From Laspinema olomoucense D3d (GTDB lineage Bacteria > Cyanobacteriota > Cyanobacteriia > Cyanobacteriales > Laspinemataceae), in NCBI RefSeq assembly GCF_025370715.1, contig NZ_JAMXEY010000002.1: 12,950 nucleotides of DNA. One strand, 5' to 3'. Below the pieces are notes generated by a model. It did not search any database. It saw nothing but the letters and a program-made list of their open reading frames with translations, and was not told the origin of the DNA. Within the stretch, counting starts at the first letter, position 1. Every line of letters starts with the position of its first letter. The translations under genes and the position numbers were made by a program. Of this stretch, positions 1-12,950 are shown one piece after another.

Positions 1-1590
1 AACCACCCGTTGCCCATCGCCGCTGATGGCTACGGCACGTACCCAGTCACTATGCCCGGTGAGAGTGCGTTCCTCCTCCCCTGTGGCCAGATTCCACACT
101 TTCAGGGTCTTATCGTCTGAACCGGAAACCACCCGTTGCCCATCGCCGCTGATGGCTACGGCACGTACCCAGTCACTATGCCCGGTGAGAGTGCGTTCCT
201 CCTTCCCGGTGGCCAGATTCCACACTTTCAGGGTCTTATCCCCTGAACCGGAAACCACCCGTTGCCCATCGCCGCTGATGGCTACGGCACGTACCCAGCT
301 ACTATGCCCGGTGAGAGTGCGTTCCTCCTTCCCGGTGGCCAGATTCCACACTTTCAGGGTCTTATCCCCTGAACCGGAAACCACCCGTTGCCCATCGCCG
401 CTGATGGCTACGGCACGTACCCAGCTACTATGCCCGGTGAGAGGGCGTTCCTCCTTCCCGGTGGCCAGATTCCATACTTTCAGGGTGTTATCGTCTGAAC
501 CGGAAACCACCCGTTGCCCATCGCGGCTAATGGCTACGGCACGTACCCAGCTACTATGCCCGGGGAGAGTGCGTTCCTCCTCCCCGGTGGCCAGATTCCA
601 CACTTTCAGGGTGTTATCGTCTGAACCGGAAACCACCTGTTGCCCATCGCGGCTGATGGCTACGGCAGTTACCGAGTTACTATGCCCGGTGAGAGTGCGT
701 TCCTCCTCCCCGGTGGCCAGATTCCATACTTTCAGGGTGTTATCGTCTGAACCGGAAACCACCCGTTGCCCATCGCGGCTGATGGCCACGGCATTTACCG
801 TGCCACTATGCCCGGTGAGAGCGCGTTCCTCCTCCCCGGTGGCCAGATTCCAAACCTTTAGGGTGTTATCATAAGAACCGGAAACCACCCGTTGCCCATC
901 GCGGCTGATGGCCACGGCACGTACCATATCACTATGCCCGGTGAGAGTGCGTTCCTCCTCCCCGGTGGACAGATTCCAAACCTTTAGGGTGTTATCATAA
1001 GAACCGGAAACCGCCCGTTGCCCATCGCGGCTGATGGCCACGGCACTTACCCAGTCACTATGCCCGGTGAGGGTGCGTTCCTCCTCCCCCGTGGCCAGAT
1101 TCCACACTTTCAGGGTGTTATCCTCTGAACCAGAAACCACCCGTTGCCCATCGGGGCTGATGGCCACGGCAGTTACCGAGCTACTATGCCCGGTGAGAGT
1201 GCGTTCCTCCTCCCCCGTGGCCAGATTCCACACTTTCAGGGTGTTATCCTCTGAACCAGAAACCACCCGTTGCCCATCGGGGCTGATGGCCACGGCAGTT
1301 ACCGAGCTACTATGCCCGGTGAGAGTGCGTTCCTCCTCCCCGGTGGCCAGATTCCACACTTTCAGGGTGTTATCCTCTGAACCAGAAACCACCCGTTGCC
1401 CATCGGGGCTGATGGCCACGGCAGTTACCGAGTTACCATGCCCGGTGAGGGTGCGTTCCTCCTCCCCTGTCGCCAAATTCCACACCTTCAGGGTTTTATC
1501 CAATGAACCGGAAACCACCCGTTGCCCATCCCGGCTGATGGCGACGGCATTTACCGAGTTACCATGCCCGGTGAGAGTGCGGATTAAGGG
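1..1590 (-). repeat. Tandem array of 13 near-identical 126-bp units, each encoding one 42-aa WD40 blade; the array continues beyond the window
   Basis: The motif aaccacccgttgcccatcgc recurs at 1, 127, 253, 379, 505, 631, 757, 883, 1009, 1135, 1261, 1387 and 1513, an exact 126-bp period. Units are roughly 90% or more identical at the DNA level by eye. Differences concentrate in a few codons. Confidence 0.9.
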
Positions 1591-3981
1591 ACCGCCGGGG
1601 GCTGTCAAGTTAGGGAAGAGGGGACGAATCCAGGGTTTTCTTTGACATTGTTGCGCCTGGGTCAGCAGTTGGATGATGGCGGGGAACGTCTCCCTTTGGG
1701 GAGTCTCCTCCGCATACTTGGGTAAATGCTGACCAATGCCCGGAATCCGCTCCCAGAAATAGCGATAGGGAGGTTTAGGGGGGGTCATCTCCCCAAAAGA
1801 CAACAACCGCCCCCAGAGTTGCCCCGCCAGTTGGCTGGTATCCTGCTGCACCACATGGGCGGACAAGCGCACCGCCTCCCCCACTAGCTCCAGGGTCCGA
1901 CTTGCCACCGCCTCTGGAACTGCCTCAAAATCCGCCAACACCGCCCCCACCCCCAGGCGCTCTATCTTCCCCTGCAACCAGGGAAAATCCAGTAACAGGG
2001 GTGGGATGTGGTGTGGGCAAACTTGGAGATGGTGACGAATGGCGTAGCGAGCAAAATACTCATCCGCCGTCGCCTCGTGATAGCCTTCGGGATAGCGTTG
2101 ACCATAAGCGGCGAAAAACTGCTCCTGACGCGCCGTCAAATCCCCCGCCTGTTGGCGCACATAATCCACCTGCAAATCGTGCAGACTCAGCCGATCTAAC
2201 TCATCCCGCAACAGCAACGACTTCGCCACCAAATCATTCACCACATCGGACACCGCCGAGGCATCCAGCCCGATCGCCCCCCAGAAAATTTCCAGCACCC
2301 CCTCGGGAATCGGCCTATCCTCCGGGAAAATCGCCAAATCCAGATACCGAGTCGCCATATCTGACGGCAACGCATCCACACTCACTTGCAGCACTTTCAG
2401 TAAATTGGGATGGGGATAATTCGGGAACTCGTAGGCAATCCGAGCTAAATCTGGCGATCGCAATTTTTCCAGCACATTCCGCCAACGGTTTGCCCCGTTC
2501 CCACGGACCATTGCCCCGGCGATCGCCACTGCCAAAGGCAAATAGCCACATTCCCGCACCACCTCCACCGCCTCCGGTGGCAATCCTTCCCGGTGTTCCC
2601 CCGCCCACTGCGCCACCAACCCTAACCCCTGCTCCTCGGACAACACCCCCACCTCATGACCTTGGGCCGCCAACCCCGTCACTAACCTCCCATCCCGGGT
2701 CGTCACCAACAATTGACACCGTGGCCCCAACCCGTCAAACGCCGCCGCGTGGGACATCTGCCAAACATCATCCAACACCAACAAACAAGCGCGCCCCTCC
2801 AACTGTTGCGCCAGTGCCGCTTTCCCCTGGGGCACATCCTCAAAATAGATGCGCTCCCCGGTGAAATAGGCCACACAGTCCACCAATCGCGCTTTCACGT
2901 TCGGTTTTTGCCCCAAGGTCACCCACAGCACCCCATCGGGAAACCGTTCTCCCACCGCTTCATCCCGCGCCACCGCCGCCGCCAGCACCGACTTCCCAAT
3001 GCCCCCCATCCCCTGCACGCCCACCCGCTGCGCCACCCCCGTCATCACCAAAGTTTGGGACTCGGTTCCCAGCAGCTTGGTTTTAATCGCCTCAACTTCT
3101 TCTGAGCGGGGCAAAAACTTCAGAGGCAAGGACGGCACATTAAACAACTGGGAACGGAGTGCAGCGGTTGCCCCTTCCCCCCCTGCCAGTCGGTCCATCT
3201 TGCCTTCCATGCGCTCTCCCTGTCGCATCAGACGCAAGAAATTCTCGTCTAAGCTACTCAGCACCCGCTCCACATCTTCCCGCTGCGCCAACTTCGGCAA
3301 ATACTGCTGAATTTCCTGAAGCTGCGCCAAAGTTGCCCCATGCAAATCCAACACCATCCCCCCAAACGCTTTCGGGTCATCCTTCAACACCTGCCGCAAA
3401 TACTGGCCAAAATTCGCCGCCAACTCCCCCGCCAACGCCGCCACCACATCCTGATACTCGGCAGCTTCCGCAGGCAAAATCCCCCGCCCATAGCCCCAAT
3501 CCACCAAATCCTCACTTAACTCCTGCCACTCGTCCGCCGTCAAAACCGGGTAGTTGCTGAACCCTCCGGGTGCTTGGCTAAACAGGTGATAAAGCTGCTC
3601 CTCCTGCAAGGTTTCAAACACATTAATGCCCTGCACCCGCTCCAACCAATAGACTTCCACCCCATCCGCCAACCCCTGCAATCCAGCGCGCAAATCCAGG
3701 AACTGGGGGATGATGCGCTCCTCTAAGGTTTTCCCCACCGTCCGTCCCGCCGCCTTCGCTAAATCCTCATTCCGCAACACCTCCCCATGATTGCGAAACC
3801 GATCGAGCAACGCCTCGATCTCATTTGCCCCCAAGCTGCTGATAATCCCACTCGTCACAGTCCATACCGCTTCTGTCCCAGGACTCCCCGCCTTTGCTAG
3901 AGTCCACACAGCCCCCAACCCCAGTAGCGCCGTTTTACCCAATAGGCTTCGATTCACCTTGAGCCACCGATTCGCATCCAT
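1..3981 (-). CDS. STAND/NLR-like NTPase: unknown N-terminal domain, then NB-ARC (AP-ATPase), then a WD40 repeat array. The C-terminus is partial: the gene continues beyond the window start, in-window part 1,327 codons
   Basis: Minus-strand frame is open from the ATG at 3979-3981 (GGAGG 10 nt upstream) to position 1 with no stop. Walker A QGMGGIGKS is encoded around 2990-3013, Walker B ACLLVLDDVW at 2761-2790, and an LLVTTRD sensor motif follows. The linker PWIRPLFPNLTAPGGPLIRTLTGH then leads into 13 WD40 units of consensus SGSxDxTLKVWNLATGEEERTLTGHSxxVxAVAISxDGQRVV. The plus-strand ORFs in the track (26..874, 1034..1645, 1902..2864) are antisense artefacts of this gene. Confidence 0.85.
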   Translation of the reverse strand, partial: MDANRWLKVNRSLLGKTALLGLGAVWTLAKAGSPGTEAVWTVTSGIISSLGANEIEALLDRFRNHGEVLRNEDLAKAAGRTVGKTLEERIIPQFLDLRAGLQGLADGVEVYWLERVQGINVFETLQEEQLYHLFSQAPGGFSNYPVLTADEWQELSEDLVDWGYGRGILPAEAAEYQDVVAALAGELAANFGQYLRQVLKDDPKAFGGMVLDLHGATLAQLQEIQQYLPKLAQREDVERVLSSLDENFLRLMRQGERMEGKMDRLAGGEGATAALRSQLFNVPSLPLKFLPRSEEVEAIKTKLLGTESQTLVMTGVAQRVGVQGMGGIGKSVLAAAVARDEAVGERFPDGVLWVTLGQKPNVKARLVDCVAYFTGERIYFEDVPQGKAALAQQLEGRACLLVLDDVWQMSHAAAFDGLGPRCQLLVTTRDGRLVTGLAAQGHEVGVLSEEQGLGLVAQWAGEHREGLPPEAVEVVRECGYLPLAVAIAGAMVRGNGANRWRNVLEKLRSPDLARIAYEFPNYPHPNLLKVLQVSVDALPSDMATRYLDLAIFPEDRPIPEGVLEIFWGAIGLDASAVSDVVNDLVAKSLLLRDELDRLSLHDLQVDYVRQQAGDLTARQEQFFAAYGQRYPEGYHEATADEYFARYAIRHHLQVCPHHIPPLLLDFPWLQGKIERLGVGAVLADFEAVPEAVASRTLELVGEAVRLSAHVVQQDTSQLAGQLWGRLLSFGEMTPPKPPYRYFWERIPGIGQHLPKYAEETPQRETFPAIIQLLTQAQQCQRKPWIRPLFPNLTAPGGPLIRTLTGHGNSVNAVAISRDGQRVVSGSLDKTLKVWNLATGEEERTLTGHGNSVTAVAISPDGQRVVSGSEDNTLKVWNLATGEEERTLTGHSSSVTAVAISPDGQRVVSGSEDNTLKVWNLATGEEERTLTGHSSSVTAVAISPDGQRVVSGSEDNTLKVWNLATGEEERTLTGHSDWVSAVAISRDGQRAVSGSYDNTLKVWNLSTGEEERTLTGHSDMVRAVAISRDGQRVVSGSYDNTLKVWNLATGEEERALTGHSGTVNAVAISRDGQRVVSGSDDNTLKVWNLATGEEERTLTGHSNSVTAVAISRDGQQVVSGSDDNTLKVWNLATGEEERTLPGHSSWVRAVAISRDGQRVVSGSDDNTLKVWNLATGKEERPLTGHSSWVRAVAISGDGQRVVSGSGDKTLKVWNLATGKEERTLTGHSSWVRAVAISGDGQRVVSGSGDKTLKVWNLATGKEERTLTGHSDWVRAVAISGDGQRVVSGSDDKTLKVWNLATGEEERTLTGHSDWVRAVAISGDGQRVV

Positions 3982-4151
3982 CCTCTGTACCTCCACCACT
4001 GCACCTATTTTACTGAAGGTTCATCACCTTGGACACGATTTGTCAGCAAAAAGTGGGTACGAACAGCGCTATCCGGATTCATGAATTTCACCGCAACGGA
4101 CGGGAGCCATTAGAATAGAAACGTGAATCTGACTTAACCGGAGTGTGTGAC
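3982..4151. promoter_or_regulatory. Divergent intergenic region shared by the STAND gene (minus) and the small-protein/protease cassette (plus); presumed divergent promoters
   Basis: This 170-bp non-coding gap lies between two start codons facing away from each other. GGAGG is present 10 nt upstream of the minus-strand ATG and GGAG 8 nt upstream of the plus-strand ATG at 4152. No -35/-10 pair could be pinned down confidently. Confidence 0.35.
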
Positions 4152-4367
4152 ATGGTGCCATCGGAATTAATCTCAACCTTGAGAGCGCTGAGTCGTTCAG
4201 ATCAGTTCTATATCATGCAGATTCTGCTCTCAGAATTAGCCCAGCAGGAACCTACTCTGATTCAGTCTGAGCAATCTTATCCAGTGTGGTCGCCTTATGG
4301 TGCGGATGAGGCAGCAGATACAATGTTAAAAGTGCTACAGGAGTCTAAATCTCAAGATGATGGGTAA
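4152..4367 (+). CDS. Small acidic hypothetical protein, 71 aa, D/E-rich; partner of the downstream protease
   Basis: ATG at 4152 with GGAG at 4140-4143 (8-nt spacer). The ORF track starts at the GTG at 4143, and ATG 4152 is the more likely start. The frame stays open through an AT-richer stretch. Its stop TAA at 4365-4367 overlaps the next ORF's ATGATG start at 4357. No recognisable family. Confidence 0.5.
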   Translation: MVPSELISTLRALSRSDQFYIMQILLSELAQQEPTLIQSEQSYPVWSPYGADEAADTMLKVLQESKSQDDG

Positions 4368-4788
4368 TCCTGAACGATATCCATTTTTATCGGGTAATCC
4401 GGCATTAGGTGAAGCTAGTTTTTGTCCGTATCTGCCTTTGACCTTGTTTTACCAGGAGAGTTCACTCAAAACCTCCGGGCTGTTAGATACTGGGGCAAGT
4501 GTAAATGTGCTGCCATATTTGACAGGCATTGAGCTGGGATACGAATGGGAGAGACAAACAACTGCTCTGAGCCTGACTGGTAATTTAGCTCAGTATGAGG
4601 CGCGTGTTGTACTTGCTCAAGGGATCATTGGTCAGTTTGAGCCTGTGCAACTGGTATTTGCCTGGACACAAGCTACAAACGTACCGCTCATTCTGGGGCA
4701 GGTAAACTTTTTTATGGAGTTCGATGTCTGTTTCTATCGTTCCCAGTTAGAGTTTGCAGTCAGCCCTAAAACTCCTTCCTCCGAGTAG
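4357..4788 (+). CDS. Retropepsin-like (clan AA) single-domain aspartyl protease, 143 aa
   Basis: Catalytic motif LLDTGASVNVLP (Asp at aa 44, nt 4486-4488) follows a hydrophobic hairpin region. The C-terminal hh-G-x-hh motif LILGQVNFF matches the ILGRD/IIGRN dimer-interface motif of retropepsins and Ddi1. Its size fits a homodimerising half-pepsin. The start overlaps the upstream stop by 11 nt (ATGATGGGTAA), indicating translational coupling. Confidence 0.6.
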   Translation: MMGNPERYPFLSGNPALGEASFCPYLPLTLFYQESSLKTSGLLDTGASVNVLPYLTGIELGYEWERQTTALSLTGNLAQYEARVVLAQGIIGQFEPVQLVFAWTQATNVPLILGQVNFFMEFDVCFYRSQLEFAVSPKTPSSE

Positions 4789-4895
4789 GTTGAATGTTAG
4801 GTTGTTTAATCGTTGCCATAATCTTTGCCGGAACGATTCGATCTATTCGCTGATATCATGGGTAAATTATGTTCTGACCTTCTGAGCAAGCAACC

Positions 4896-6507: not shown

Positions 6508-6541
6508 GTTCATAGTCACAACTTCAGTCGTTACTATGAAC
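6508..6541. terminator. Perfect 9-bp inverted repeat (GTTCATAGT-16 nt-ACTATGAAC) between convergent genes; possible bidirectional terminator or protein-binding palindrome
   Basis: The left arm 6508-6516 is the exact reverse complement of the right arm 6533-6541. The right arm overlaps the TAG stop (6534-6536) of the minus-strand GST gene. There is no clear U-tract on either side, so intrinsic-terminator status is weak. Confidence 0.3.
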
Positions 6542-7505
6542 TAAGAGAATGGCTTAAAACCTCGCGATGGTGGGGCTCCTGTAAGTTGGTGATAGTTGGT
6601 CCTAATGGAATAATTCCACCGGGATTTAAGGGGAAAAGATTACCGTAATAGTCTCGTTTAATACTATCAAGATTACAAGTGTCTGCTACTCCCGGGAGTT
6701 GATAGATATCCCTGAGATAGGGTCCGAGGTTTTGATAGTCCTGGATGCGGCGTTTATTGCATTTAAAGAGTCCGTGATAAACAATATCAAAACGAAATAA
6801 TGTGGTAAATAGCCGCACATCAGCTAGAGTTAATTGGTCGCCGCATAAGTATCGATTAGTCGCCAAAACTGCATCTATTTCATCTAAGGTATTAAACAGT
6901 TCCGTGCAGGCGGTGTTGTATGCGGTTTGACTTTGAGCAAATCCACAGCGATAGACGCCGTTGTTAATAGCAGGGTAAATTTTATCGTTCCAGTATTCTA
7001 TTTTGTCTTGCAACTTTTCGGGATATAAATTGAGTTCTGGATGAGGGCTAAATTCATTAAATTCTGAATTTAGCATGATGATAATTTCCGCACTTTCATT
7101 GTTAACAATGGTCTGGGTTTGGGTATCAAATAGGACCGGAACGGTGCAGCGTCCTTGATATCCGGGACGGGCGATCGCATACAGTTCCGGGAGGGTTTGA
7201 CAGCCGTATTCGGGTTCATCCAGGACCCAGATTCCGGCATCGGGAGAGGGGGAGACAATGGCAACGGAAATGGCCGATTCTAATCCTTTGAGCGATCGCA
7301 CCACCAGGGTCCGATGCGCCCAAGGGCAACCCAATCCCACATACAGGCGATACCGTTCCTTAGCTGGGGGATAGGGGTTTTCGGGTTGGGTTCCGACGGA
7401 ATTTCTAAACTCGCTGATGGGACGAATGTATTCTCCAGTTTGATTACGCGGGGCGAGTTTGGACATCATCAGTTGCCATAGGCTCGTCCAGACAAATTTG
7501 CCCAT
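6534..7505 (-). CDS. yqjG: Xi-class glutathione S-transferase / glutathionyl-hydroquinone reductase (YqjG/ECM4 family)
   Basis: Hallmark Cys-Pro-Trp-Ala active-site motif in RYRLYVGLGCPWAHRTLV. Blocks VPVLFDTQTQTIVNNESAEII, NNGVYRCGFAQSQTAY, LTLADVRLFTTLFRFD, LRDIYQLPG and GIIPLGP align closely with what I recall of E. coli YqjG. The start is chosen at the ATG (7503-7505) giving MGKFVW..., which aligns with the YqjG N-terminus. In-frame alternatives lie upstream at 7586 (MSLETPS...) and 7652. Confidence 0.8.
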   Translation of the reverse strand: MGKFVWTSLWQLMMSKLAPRNQTGEYIRPISEFRNSVGTQPENPYPPAKERYRLYVGLGCPWAHRTLVVRSLKGLESAISVAIVSPSPDAGIWVLDEPEYGCQTLPELYAIARPGYQGRCTVPVLFDTQTQTIVNNESAEIIIMLNSEFNEFSPHPELNLYPEKLQDKIEYWNDKIYPAINNGVYRCGFAQSQTAYNTACTELFNTLDEIDAVLATNRYLCGDQLTLADVRLFTTLFRFDIVYHGLFKCNKRRIQDYQNLGPYLRDIYQLPGVADTCNLDSIKRDYYGNLFPLNPGGIIPLGPTITNLQEPHHREVLSHSLSS

Positions 7506-7671
7506 TTTAATAATAACTTTTGAGGGCAGTTTTTTCCCTTTTTTCGGGGGAGTATTGGTTTGGTTGGAAGGAGTTTCTAAAGACATAATCAATGGGGTGA
7601 AGGGGATAAACTCATAAAAAATATTTCTCGTCTTACAAGTTGAGTAATGCACAGGCGAGGGCCTGGTTATT

Positions 7672-8178
7672 TTAGTCGGGTAATTGTTCTTTCAAAGAAG
7701 AAATAATCTGAGCATCTAGTTTGAGTTTGACCTCGATTAAGCGGGTGGTATCCCGGAAAATTAAAATTTGATTGTCTTCTACAAAAATTTCTGGTTCTTG
7801 CAAAGTCAAGGTTTGATATTTCAAGGCAGCGAGTCCGATCTGCATGACGAGGGTGGGTTGGGATTGGGGATAAATGTAGAGTTGCTGCCGTTTGGGGTCG
7901 AGTTGCAGTTGTCTGACGGTGGTATTGCGTTCGTCTGGCATTCCGGGTTTTGACCAATAGAGGGTAATGCCGCGTATATCGGGGTTGGCGATCGCAAAGG
8001 TTTCGTCAAAGCGTTGGGGTTCCCAATCCAATTCTCGAACATCGCCGTTTCCCGGAAGGATACGCTGGCGCAAGATGATCTCTTTGCCGTTGAGGTTGCG
8101 CCACCATTGCCGGATTGTCTCGAAATTTTCAACCATCTCGGGATTGCTATTCCCAGAGTGCCAGGTGATGAATTGCAC
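7672..8178 (-). CDS. Hypothetical protein (about 168 aa), family not recognised
   Basis: The minus-strand frame is open for 176 codons. The start is chosen at the GTG (8176-8178) preceded by a near-perfect SD AGGAGG with a 6-nt spacer. The ORF track's start at 8202 is a TTG and the first ATG lies 23 codons further in. No motifs recognised. It is transcribed divergently from the HDAC-family gene. Confidence 0.5.
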   Translation of the reverse strand: MQFITWHSGNSNPEMVENFETIRQWWRNLNGKEIILRQRILPGNGDVRELDWEPQRFDETFAIANPDIRGITLYWSKPGMPDERNTTVRQLQLDPKRQQLYIYPQSQPTLVMQIGLAALKYQTLTLQEPEIFVEDNQILIFRDTTRLIEVKLKLDAQIISSLKEQLPD

Positions 8179-8274
8179 GATCGCCCTCCTGATTACTATC
8201 AATAATTCCCATTTTAGAGTTTAAATTAGATTTTAAAGGTGACTGTACCTCGGCAACGCTAAACCTTCCCTGAC

Positions 8275-9192
8275 ATGGACTTACCCATCGTTTATCATCC
8301 TGACTATGTGGCCCCTCTGCCTCCGTCCCATCGTTTCCCGATGGAAAAGTTTCGGTTACTCTATGAAATGCTTTTAGGCGATCGCGTTGTCACTCCCGAA
8401 CAGTGTCACACGCCAGAATTGCCACCCCAGGACTGGATTGAATCCGTCCATGACCCCCAATATGTCCAGGCATATTGCCAAGGCACTCTCGACCCCAAAG
8501 CACAGCGCAGGATTGGTTTACCCTGGACTGAGGCGATCGCCCATCGCACTTGTATCTCCATTGGTGGGGCAGTTTTGACCGCTAAACTGGCATTAAAACA
8601 CGGATTAGCTTGCAACACCGCCGGGGGAACGCATCATGCCTTTCCCGATTTTGGATCAGGGTTTTGCATTTTCAATGATTTGGCGATCGCCTCCAGGATG
8701 ATCCAAAAATTGGCCGGGATTCGCAAAGTCTTAATTGTTGATTTGGACGTCCATCAAGGGGATGGGACAGCCTTTATTTTTAAAAATGACCCGGATGTTT
8801 TTACCTTTTCTCTACACTGTGAGGCCAATTTTCCCGGGCGAAAACAAACCAGTGATTTAGATGTTCCTTTACCCGTAGGAATGGAGGATGATGAATACTT
8901 GCAAACCGTCGCTGGTTATTTACCGGATTTACTCGGACAATTCCAACCGGATTTAGTCTTGTATGACGCAGGAGTGGATGTTCATGCAGGCGATCGCCTG
9001 GGTAAATTAGCCCTGAGTGATACCGGGATTTTTCGGCGAGATATGCAGGTGTTAAGCACCTGTCTCGCCGCTAGATATCCCGTTGCCTGTGTCATTGGGG
9101 GCGGATATTGCGAGGATATGCGCGGTTTGGTGTATCGCCATTCTCTCTTACATCGTGCTGCAGCTCAAGTGTATCGTCAGTATCGACTTTAG
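8275..9192 (+). CDS. Histone deacetylase-superfamily amidohydrolase (AcuC / acetylpolyamine aminohydrolase-like)
   Basis: N-terminal PIVYHPDY is followed by the class-defining GGTHHAFPDFGSGFCIFNDLAIA block, the metal-binding LIVDLDVHQGDGT block and a C-terminal GGGY motif. ATG at 8275. Confidence 0.85.
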   Translation: MDLPIVYHPDYVAPLPPSHRFPMEKFRLLYEMLLGDRVVTPEQCHTPELPPQDWIESVHDPQYVQAYCQGTLDPKAQRRIGLPWTEAIAHRTCISIGGAVLTAKLALKHGLACNTAGGTHHAFPDFGSGFCIFNDLAIASRMIQKLAGIRKVLIVDLDVHQGDGTAFIFKNDPDVFTFSLHCEANFPGRKQTSDLDVPLPVGMEDDEYLQTVAGYLPDLLGQFQPDLVLYDAGVDVHAGDRLGKLALSDTGIFRRDMQVLSTCLAARYPVACVIGGGYCEDMRGLVYRHSLLHRAAAQVYRQYRL

Positions 9193-11174: not shown

Positions 11175-12575
11175 TTACAATCCTAGAAATAGCTTGGCAA
11201 TATTAAAGTAAATCAGAACACCCAAAACATCTACAGCCGTGGTAATAAATGGTGCTGACATCAGGGCGGGATCTAACTTAATGGCGCGGAATAAAAATGG
11301 CAGGGCTGAACCGGATACCGATGCCAAAATTGAAATCGCAATCAGAGAGATGCCGACACAGAAAGCCACCTGGAGATTGACTCGCAACAGGAAAAAAGCC
11401 CAGATGGTGGCAAGAGTTCCCAAAATTGTCCCTAGTAATGCACCGGCAATTCCTTCTCGCCAGATAACTTTGAGCGGTCCGAGTAAGCGAATTTCATCGG
11501 TATTCATCCCGCGAATCACCACAGTAGAAGACTGGGCACCGACATTCCCTCCCGTACCCGTCAGCAGGGGAATAAAGGCGGTGAGGACGACGACTTGCTG
11601 CAATAGCTCTTTTTGGGAATTAATAATTGATCCGGTTACGGTATTGGTGAGCAATAAGACGAACAGCCACACGACACGGCGTCGCGCCACTGTCCATAAA
11701 TTCATTTCAAAATAATTATCCCCATCGGTTTGGACCCCACCCAAGGCATAAATATCCTCGGTGGTTTCCTGTTCCATGATGTCGATCGCATCATCGATGG
11801 TGATGACCCCGACTAAGCGTTGCTCGCGATCGACCACGGGGATCGCTAGGAAATCATAGCGCTGAATCAGGCGCGAGACTTCCTCACCGTCGGTATCTGT
11901 ATGGACGAATACCACATCCCGAGTCATGATTTCACTAATTTTTTCCTCGGGGGAACTAATCACCAAGTCCCGCAGGGAAACGATTCCGGTTAACCGGCGT
12001 TCGCTATCCATGACATAGAGGTAATAAATAATTTCCGCCACTGGCGACAGGGTGCGAATCCGTTCCAGGGTTTGGCTGACGCTCATATTTTCCCGGACGG
12101 AAATATATTCCGGGGTCATGATTCTCCCGGCAGTTCCCGATTCATAGCCCATTAGCAGGGCGGTGGACTGCCATTCCGTGGGAGACAGTTGTGCCCGCAA
12201 TCGGCGCACGACTTTCGAGGGCAATTCATCCAGCAGTCGGGCGCGATCGTCCGGGGACATATTGCCAATGATATCTAGGACGTCCTGGCGCTTGAAGTCT
12301 TCTAAAAGCACCTGTTGGACGCTGGTATCGAGATGTTCATAAACTTCCGTTGCTTCCTGTTTGGATAGCAAGCGAAAGGCGATCGCCTGCATCGCTTCAG
12401 GCATTCCTTCGATCGCTTCGGCGATATCCACAGGTTGAACCGGGACTAAAATCGCTTTAGCCCCCTGGAGGTCCCCCTGTCTGAGCAGGGCTTCCAGTTG
12501 CGATCGCACTAAGTCAGGTATTTCTCTCCGCGACAGGGTCCCGAGGGGAGAGGATATCGGTTGAGGTTCAGTCAC
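11175..12575 (-). CDS. mgtE: Magnesium transporter MgtE (N-terminal MgtE-N domain, tandem CBS domains, C-terminal 5-TM MgtE pore domain)
   Basis: 466 aa. The GTG start at 12573-12575 is preceded by AGGGAG with a 6-nt spacer. The CBS-like regions are ...YISVRENMSVSQTLERIR... and ...RDVVFVHTDTDGEEVSRLIQRYDFLAIPVVD... The C-terminal TM block carries the conserved ...GNVGAQSSTVVIRG... and ...APFITTAVDVLGVLIYF... signatures of MgtE. Confidence 0.9.
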   Translation of the reverse strand: MTEPQPISSPLGTLSRREIPDLVRSQLEALLRQGDLQGAKAILVPVQPVDIAEAIEGMPEAMQAIAFRLLSKQEATEVYEHLDTSVQQVLLEDFKRQDVLDIIGNMSPDDRARLLDELPSKVVRRLRAQLSPTEWQSTALLMGYESGTAGRIMTPEYISVRENMSVSQTLERIRTLSPVAEIIYYLYVMDSERRLTGIVSLRDLVISSPEEKISEIMTRDVVFVHTDTDGEEVSRLIQRYDFLAIPVVDREQRLVGVITIDDAIDIMEQETTEDIYALGGVQTDGDNYFEMNLWTVARRRVVWLFVLLLTNTVTGSIINSQKELLQQVVVLTAFIPLLTGTGGNVGAQSSTVVIRGMNTDEIRLLGPLKVIWREGIAGALLGTILGTLATIWAFFLLRVNLQVAFCVGISLIAISILASVSGSALPFLFRAIKLDPALMSAPFITTAVDVLGVLIYFNIAKLFLGL

Positions 12576-12690: not shown

Positions 12691-12950
12691 TCACTCCGCA
12701 CCTCCCAAAAGCTGCTGTGCCACCGTTAAATAAATTAACACCCCCAGGACATCCACTGCTGTGGTAATAAAGGGCGCTGACATTAAGGTTGGCTCAAATC
12801 CTAGGCGATCAAATAAAAACGGGAGGGCTGACCCGGCGAAGGAGGCGAGGATAGTAATCGCCAGCAAACTCACTCCCACGGAAATAGCAACCAGGAGATT
12901 TCCCGCTAGGAAATAGGCCCAAATGGTGACAATAAGCGACAGCATGATTC
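12691..12950 (-). CDS. mgtE: Second MgtE-family magnesium transporter, C-terminal transmembrane part only (N-terminus beyond the window end)
   Basis: Translation ...ISVGVSLLAITILASFAGSALPFLFDRLGFEPTLMSAPFITTAVDVLGVLIYLTV... is clearly paralogous to the C-terminus of the complete mgtE at 11175..12575 (..ISLIAISILASVSGSALPFLFRAIKLDPALMSAPFITTAVDVLGVLIYFNI..). The frame stays open to the window edge. The Met at 12945 is probably internal. Confidence 0.75.
   Translation of the reverse strand, partial: IMLSLIVTIWAYFLAGNLLVAISVGVSLLAITILASFAGSALPFLFDRLGFEPTLMSAPFITTAVDVLGVLIYLTVAQQLLGGAE

Follow-up and report, generated by a model that had tools for sequence, protein, structure and literature searches.

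The window analysed here, 12,950 nucleotides (nt) of contig NZ_JAMXEY010000002.1 of the cyanobacterium Laspinema olomoucense D3d (assembly GCF_025370715.1), carries on its plus strand two overlapping genes: gene A (4152-4367), which encodes an acidic helical protein of 71 amino acids (aa), and gene B (4357-4788), which encodes a 143-aa cytoplasmic aspartic protease of the retropepsin fold. Comparison with other genomes indicates that A and B make up an autonomous operon of two genes, with coupled translation and a promoter of its own. Databases already list B as an aspartyl protease, and PADLOC includes the pair among its candidate systems as PDC-M52, so the cassette is not new in kind; the addition made by the present analysis is that, almost universally and across phyla, this retropepsin is linked to a 71-aa protein whose VWSPY-helix module is invariant. 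The pair may function as a toxin-antitoxin-like module of protease and inhibitor, an interpretation to which we give a little less than an even chance.

An original prediction, made from the sequence of the window alone, had described gene B as a free-standing bacterial retropepsin. The reading frame that it quoted, beginning with the ATG at 4357, is exactly as given, and it named correctly both the catalytic residue (D44) and the C-terminal hydrophobic-hydrophobic-glycine motif (I112-L113-G114, codons at 4690-4698); its DTGAS block is real and conserved, but was placed at residues 43-49, whereas the sequence LLDTGAS occupies residues 42-48, with the catalytic triplet D44-T45-G46 encoded by GAT ACT GGG at 4486-4494. 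Residues 111-123, around the second motif, read LILGQVNFFMEFD. Retropepsins are defined by these two hallmarks, hydrophobic-hydrophobic-Asp-Thr/Ser-Gly-Ala/Ser/Thr and the psi-loop motif (PMC4140852). D44 is unchanged in all 57 sequences of a B alignment that reaches down to 35% identity, in which G46 and G114 are near-invariant, and the D[TS]G triplet and the hydrophobic-hydrophobic-Gly motif are retained by 319 and 316, respectively, of 333 full-length family members; the motifs are therefore not a product of chance. The predicted structure of B superposes on solved retropepsins as a single-lobe beta-barrel, which bears out the fold originally proposed and, with the intact DTG active site, supports the identification of B as an aspartic protease of one retropepsin lobe. 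Because each chain supplies one catalytic aspartate (D44), B should be active only as a homodimer. One homolog in the representative library (P0166, 159 aa) contains about 12 tandem VPFIK/VPFMK/VPFIE pentapeptides directly before the ILG motif, an in-frame repeat expansion at the conserved VPLILG site.

The model of B places two beta-strands (residues 25-43) directly ahead of the active-site loop, which can be read as the first hairpin of the retropepsin fold, and precedes them with a conserved strand (residues 6-9) and a helix (15-21) within residues 1-24, predicted at a local distance difference test score (pLDDT) of 88-89; the whole of residues 1-43 is conserved and ordered in the model (pLDDT 88-98). 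The strand and helix amount to about 20 additional N-terminal residues, and there is an additional hairpin at the C-terminus. On PF13650 B reaches 22.3 bits against a cutoff of 24.3, and on PF13975 17.9 bits against 28.2; 35 of the 57 family members match PF13650 at E < 0.01 (best 3.3e-8). A profile of the B family, searched against the sequences of the PDB, found only the protease of human T-lymphotropic virus 1 (HTLV-1), at E 0.33. B has no hydrophobic N-terminus (its highest 19-residue hydropathy is 1.38) and is predicted to be soluble; its homologs are annotated by NCBI as 'aspartyl protease family protein'.

The partner gene appears in the list of open reading frames (ORFs) of the window with a GTG start at 4143 (74 aa), but its homologs favour the ATG at 4152 (71 aa). 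The small ORFs at this position in four cyanobacterial orders share a mean column identity of 79%, from which it follows that A is a real gene. A Laspinema olomoucense protein annotated as hypothetical is 100% identical to protein A of the window, which has no match in Pfam, NCBIfam or PHROG; all homologs of A are likewise annotated as hypothetical, and none has a Pfam domain. An alignment of 28 diverse A proteins reveals two modules: an N-terminal helix pair (ELL..L..L.R.DKL.LMQFL..ELA.EE) and a C-terminal module of consensus YP[IV]W[ST]P[YL][DN]A.[ED]AA..LL..L. The latter corresponds in the window to Y43-P-V-W-S-P-Y-G-A-D-E-A-A-D-T-M-L-K-V-L62 (4278-4337; VWSPY-A--AA--L), is invariant from Cyanobacteriota through Chloroflexota, and is the putative protease-binding part of the protein. 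A hidden Markov model (HMM) of the A family identified 158 ORFs with both modules among the fetched loci. The possibility that SYPVWSPY..EAA of A mimics the N-terminal RYPFLSG..GEA of B was discarded after hhalign of the two families gave a probability of 0.09%.

In Microcystis, Gloeocapsopsis, Anabaena and Leptolyngbya, the genes that flank the protease are all different, and in all four an ORF of 50-71 aa overlaps the start of the protease gene by 8 nt. Across 80 cyanobacterial reference-genome loci, 75 of 77 protease genes are preceded by A, the overlap being 8 nt in 67 cassettes and 11 nt in 4; in the window it is also 11 nt (4357-4367, from the ATG of B at 4357 to the TAA stop codon of A at 4365-4367). 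More divergent metagenomic relatives (50-65% protease identity) have the same arrangement with overlaps of 4, 8, 11 or 14 nt, and by our reading of the output 63 of the 71 evaluable loci of this kind possess an A-like gene. Copies in Chloroflexota (Anaerolineae) and on cyanobacterial plasmids likewise carry A. The locus queries consisted of one protein and a 13-sequence sub-alignment, as the full family alignment was too diverse.

Translation of B is probably coupled to that of A: a Shine-Dalgarno-like sequence for B itself is present in 7 of 73 cassettes and missing from the other 66, and gene A is preceded by a GGAG (4140-4143) situated 8 nt ahead of its ATG, as part of a GGAGT that is conserved across cassettes. 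A consensus scan located a promoter-like site at 4087-4116 (TTCACC, an 18-nt spacer, and TAGAAT as the -10 box at 4111-4116), and in 40 cassettes taken from different genomes and aligned with gaps, a TA.AATA box lies some 35 nt ahead of the start of A and is at least 70% conserved. The region holds no more promoter-like sites than chance would allow (1 found, 1.2 expected), and so the support for the promoter comes from the conservation of the -10 box between genomes. Together with the linkage and overlaps of the two genes, these features argue for the self-contained, coupled operon. Upstream of A there is no conserved operator beyond the -10 box and the Shine-Dalgarno sequence; the leader, when anchored at the start codon, holds 0.1-0.6 bits, below the third codon positions at 1.03 bits. 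The window has no match to an Rfam family.

By sequence, the pair is the PADLOC candidate system PDC-M52, with the same order and adjacency on the same strand. B matches the PDC-M52B profile PDLC04692 at E 4.9e-50 (residues 4-138 on positions 3-137 of 139) and a second, shorter PDC-M52B profile, PDLC04693, at E 5e-39, while A matches the PDC-M52A profile PDLC04691 at E 4.1e-6 solely in its C-terminal module (residues 48-72 of the 74-aa form). The PDC systems are 145 anti-phage candidates, selected because copies of them are nested in BREX, DISARM or type I restriction-modification loci; PDC-M52 is cassette CAS_00170 (FAM_01284>>FAM_00696), with 55 occurrences and the remark 'Assign as candidate', and it is solely an entry in a list, the main text making no mention of an aspartyl protease (Payne et al., bioRxiv 10.1101/2024.01.29.577857). 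The window copy does not differ in kind from PDC-M52, but lies outside any BREX, DISARM or type I restriction-modification locus. A literature search returned no experimental paper on the B family, in keeping with the original description of such proteases as poorly characterised; among the papers searched, none mentions PDC-M52 by name. A small retropepsin-domain protein is encoded near type III CRISPR loci (clustered regularly interspaced short palindromic repeats) of Sulfolobales (PMC3973734).

If A and B are a toxin-antitoxin-like module, A would be produced in fixed proportion to B from the one coupled operon, would bind B through the invariant C-terminal VWSPY-helix module, and would prevent B from acting, whether by sitting in the substrate cleft or by blocking formation of the dimer. 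Loss or displacement of A, as might accompany stress, loss of a plasmid or phage infection, would then allow the B dimer to cleave proteins of the cell or of the invader and so arrest growth. The logic is that of a type II toxin-antitoxin pair and of the yeast inhibitor pair of proteinase A and IA3 (PDB 1dp5). The likeness to IA3 is a mechanistic analogy and not homology, and no sequence similarity between A and IA3 is claimed; moreover, proteinase A is a two-lobed eukaryotic enzyme of the pepsin type and the gene of its inhibitor is unlinked, whereas B is single-lobed and A is linked. The likeness to type II toxin-antitoxin pairs extends to the small upstream gene that overlaps a downstream gene of about 140 aa and has its own promoter, to the patchy distribution in a variable context rich in toxin-antitoxin genes, to plasmid copies near partition and addiction genes, and to the modularity of the small partner. 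The fullest form of the hypothesis, a toxin-antitoxin or abortive-infection module that would be the first with a homodimeric retropepsin-type effector, restrained by its 71-aa partner through the VWSPY-helix (either IA3-like in the cleft or as a blocker of dimerisation), is possible but doubtful.

Besides the fold and active site of B, the linkage and coupled expression of the two genes, the purifying selection on both and the listing of the pair as PDC-M52, several aspects of the data speak for a toxin-antitoxin-like role. One is the antitoxin-like modularity of A, as the C-terminal module appears to have been kept while the N-terminal module was replaced in three Microcoleus loci (L080, L081 and L085), where the latter has been swapped for a ribbon-helix-helix-like sequence. 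The variants, located at 1587-1829 of L080 and in L081 and L085 (2766-3008), retain VWSPYDA..AA..ML, and the N-terminal half of the partner is MNLTLNLSPELEQYLLQSAERRGLSVEEV; they match a FitA-like ribbon-helix-helix antitoxin domain weakly (E 0.009, below cutoff). Weak matches of 10 of the 28 A proteins to PF09720 ('putative addiction module component'; best E 0.004) point the same way, though they too are sub-threshold. Another is the apparent behaviour of the cassette as a mobile, autonomous unit, with variable flanks, neighbours drawn from toxin-antitoxin systems and mobile elements, a plasmid copy, and tandem and decayed copies. No neighbouring gene is conserved, the flanks differing between all genomes; among the 134 nearest neighbours the commonest families are Uma2, DUF433/DUF5615, PIN, Unstab_antitox, HicB, PemK, XisH, NYN, IS605 OrfB and HNH, and the remainder are single housekeeping genes. 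On plasmid pP880101 of Rippkaea orientalis PCC 8801, the cassette is flanked by IS701 and IS4 transposases, with HicAB and ParA next to it. A Leptolyngbyaceae metagenome-assembled genome (MAG; L018) has, at 2775-4376 and 4454-4798, two A-B cassettes in tandem followed by a third small ORF, and a Rivularia MAG (L073) has a decayed cassette near 3001-3429, in which an in-frame stop codon falls at the conserved W64 position of the protease; the partner A of the latter has a W-to-S substitution in the WSPY motif, a variant that it has in common with L043 and L014. The second protease of L018 is about 55% identical to that of the window, and the third small ORF of that locus has an A-like N-terminus (LAELLPAVRQLSAMEKLKLIQILAEDLA) and a different C-terminus, with no protease after it.

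Several observations weigh against a toxin-antitoxin role. The identity of about 80% at the amino-acid level across cyanobacterial orders is unusually high for a toxin-antitoxin module, the loci of the window and of Chloroflexota have ordinary gene neighbours and no defence islands, and the literature search found no retropepsin or other aspartic protease as a toxin of a toxin-antitoxin system or as a defence effector. Canonical A has no recognisable DNA-binding domain, all of its Pfam matches being sub-threshold. A link of A to the antitoxin family PF09720 was set aside, as the matches are all sub-threshold and the A-family HMM missed bona fide PF09720 neighbours. The sole natural fusion of A to B (P0145, 187 aa), in which a full A homolog (residues 1-64) is in frame with a protease truncated by about 19 residues at its N-terminus, comes from a single metagenome contig of 1,094 bp from the Joint Genome Institute (JGI), and no second fusion was found among 351 relatives. 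The AlphaFold2 model of P0145 has a predicted template modelling score (pTM) of 0.66 and does not place A confidently; the alignment behind it used few B rows, as MAFFT misplaced the A rows when more than about 7 B rows were included. The A part has a pLDDT of 55-79 despite 34 aligned homologs; A may fold only upon binding, which would itself speak for the toxin-antitoxin-like interpretation. Covariation between A and B was underpowered, with 136 unique pairs and an effective number of sequences (Neff) of 60; the strongest pair arises artefactually from the overlap of the two reading frames, and within this underpowered set there is mild enrichment between the C-terminal module of A and residues 1-24 of B.

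An alternative that we consider unlikely is that A is a dedicated substrate of B, a pro-protein or regulator that is cut at or near the invariant Y-P-V-W-S-P-Y so as to release or destroy an activity. There is precedent for a partner as substrate in ImmA, which cleaves the ImmR encoded by its neighbouring gene, and in the retropepsin-like SpoIIGA, which cleaves pro-sigma-E encoded in the same operon. The linkage and coupling of A and B fit this alternative equally well. The motif often opens with Tyr-Pro followed by hydrophobic residues, and thus resembles the aromatic-Pro sites that are cut by retroviral proteases; the segment is also predicted by the fusion model to be extended (E41-42) rather than helical, as a substrate must be. 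However, Tyr-Pro is not universal, being replaced by YR, YE, CE, VV, HT or VP in some proteins, whereas W-[ST]-P and the helix next to it are invariant; conservation covers the full length of A and not one site; and A contains no recognisable effector or DNA-binding domain that would suggest a function for a cleaved product.

It is distinctly unlikely that A assists B (as activator, chaperone of folding or dimerisation, or substrate adaptor) in cytoplasmic housekeeping or stress proteolysis, with no toxin or defence logic. Such a role would explain the very strong purifying selection, with its phylum-wide identity of about 80%, and the ordinary neighbours of the window and Chloroflexota copies; it would suit two proteins that are both acidic and soluble, and would resemble the physiological roles of other bacterial retropepsins, namely APRc (PMC4140852) and the Pseudomonas Rlo peptidases (PMC11957051). 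A core function, however, should be syntenic and universal, yet the flanks of the cassette differ in every genome, there are a plasmid copy between insertion sequence elements, tandem duplicates and decayed copies, and only 250 species-level genomes were matched.

The original prediction treated B as free-standing and suggested that the approximately 40 residues preceding the catalytic hairpin might be a propeptide or a substrate-like segment. Neither claim was upheld: B is the second gene of a conserved overlapping cassette whose 71-aa first ORF had been missed, and the N-terminal residues are ordered strands and a helix in the model. That B nonetheless acts alone, with its N-terminal 30-40 residues removed by autoprocessing and the upstream ORF irrelevant, is very improbable. 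In its favour, activation of APRc, which is the nearest match in structure, is preceded by autoprocessing of N-terminal residues (PMC4140852), a small number of B homologs begin at about residue 24, and the second PADLOC profile of B is shorter; against it stand the conservation of the upstream ORF and its almost constant linkage to B, the order and conservation of residues 1-43, and the aromatic-x-aromatic at residues 8-10, which fits a buried beta-strand and is not accompanied by a conserved Pro. The short forms may be artefacts of gene calling, because they start at an internal Met that is also present in many full-length members. It is scarcely credible that B is a catalytically dead scaffold that binds A or other proteins, for although APRc is reported to have a non-proteolytic, immunoglobulin-binding activity as well (PMC8649778), the invariant Asp (57 of 57) and the D[TS]G of 319 of 333 members under strong purifying selection are as expected of an active enzyme.

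B differs from the retropepsins that have been studied before. It is only 12-15% identical to APRc (RC1339), the retropepsin-like protease of Rickettsia conorii (PDB 5c9b, 5c9f; PMC4140852), in which three N-terminal transmembrane helices are predicted and the protease domain faces outward; APRc undergoes autoprocessing and has no described partner gene (PMC4140852), whereas B is soluble and cytoplasmic and has the linked partner A. With 12.3 bits on the APRc-related family TIGR02281 (cutoff 57.95), B is not one of the membrane-embedded clan AA proteases of that family. The RloA retropepsin-like peptidases of Pseudomonas aeruginosa (PDB 9g59; PMC11957051) have signal peptides and are secreted, and their partners are an inactive transglutaminase that spans the membrane and a protein of the ATP-grasp type (PMC11957051), in contrast to the cytoplasmic location of B and its 71-aa helical partner. 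Retroviral proteases, such as those of human immunodeficiency virus 1, equine infectious anaemia virus, feline immunodeficiency virus, HTLV-1 and Rous sarcoma virus, are domains of polyproteins, and the protease domain of Ddi1 lies within proteins that contain UBL and UBA domains; B, on the other hand, is encoded by a gene of its own (143 aa), has the additional N-terminal strand and helix and C-terminal hairpin, and comes with a small partner protein.

Sequence databases contain many bacterial retropepsins, but few have a known role, and those few (APRc, the Pseudomonas Rlo peptidases and SpoIIGA) all act at or outside the membrane. The B family is cytoplasmic, and the interaction of A with B would be a concrete experimental handle on what soluble bacterial retropepsins do. 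If the pair is a toxin-antitoxin or anti-phage module, aspartic proteases would join the known types of effector, and A would offer a small, genetically encoded protein that regulates a retropepsin, which matters in view of the use of retroviral proteases as drug targets; an abortive-infection or toxin-antitoxin role would also bring a new class of protease to the immunity and addiction systems of prokaryotes, and give bacterial cytoplasmic retropepsins their first defined function. If B is instead an ordinary processing enzyme, A and B would still be a conserved gene pair of ecologically important bacteria. Bloom-forming Microcystis is among the carriers of the cassette.

B has 3,858 close relatives in the database, of which the best 120 are 79-97% identical to it and mostly 142 aa long, and its more distant relatives make up 859 representative clusters at the 50% level. 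Close relatives are present in at least 250 genomes at the species level, nearly all of them cyanobacterial, from Gloeobacterales to Nostocales, and the nearest (97% identity) is in a cyanobacterial MAG. Comparison of 17 cassettes gave a median synonymous divergence (dS) of 1.0 and a ratio of nonsynonymous to synonymous divergence (dN/dS) of 0.10, with purifying selection on both genes, which suggests that they are old and strongly constrained and have undergone no recent sweep. Synonymous divergence is below saturation even to the copy in Gloeobacterales, which hints, as an uncalibrated estimate, at horizontal spread. A few MAGs assigned to Saccharibacteria, Chloroflexaceae, Acetobacteraceae and Maritimibacter (L019, L021, L071 and L082) have copies with 76-82% identity on short contigs, which are most likely cyanobacterial contigs in the wrong bins rather than true transfers. 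A phage origin of the cassette was considered and rejected, as no relative was found in 2.9 million viral contigs or among the INPHARED phages; for the toxin-antitoxin-like interpretation this result is neutral.

Elsewhere in the window, a 176-aa ORF on the minus strand (7672-8202), located between a gene resembling glutathione S-transferase (6534-7652) and a gene of the histone deacetylase family (8275-9192), has no match in Pfam or PADLOC. Divergent from the cassette, an ORF of more than 1,333 aa on the minus strand (1-3999) runs off the left edge of the window; it has an N-terminal region, a P-loop (GMGGIGKS, near residue 330) and 12 or more WD40 repeats, and its product looks like a STAND-type NTPase-WD40 protein. 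This ORF accounts for the C-rich plus strand and for the spurious plus-strand ORFs opposite it (26-874, 1034-1645, 1902-2864 and others). At the right edge, an 84-aa ORF on the minus strand (12691-12945) closely resembles the C-terminal membrane part of the complete magnesium transporter MgtE encoded at 11175-12575 (minus strand), with which it shares the segments …SALPFLF…MSAPFITTAVDVLGVLIY…; a tandem pair of mgtE paralogs seems to be present here, the second of them truncated by the end of the window.

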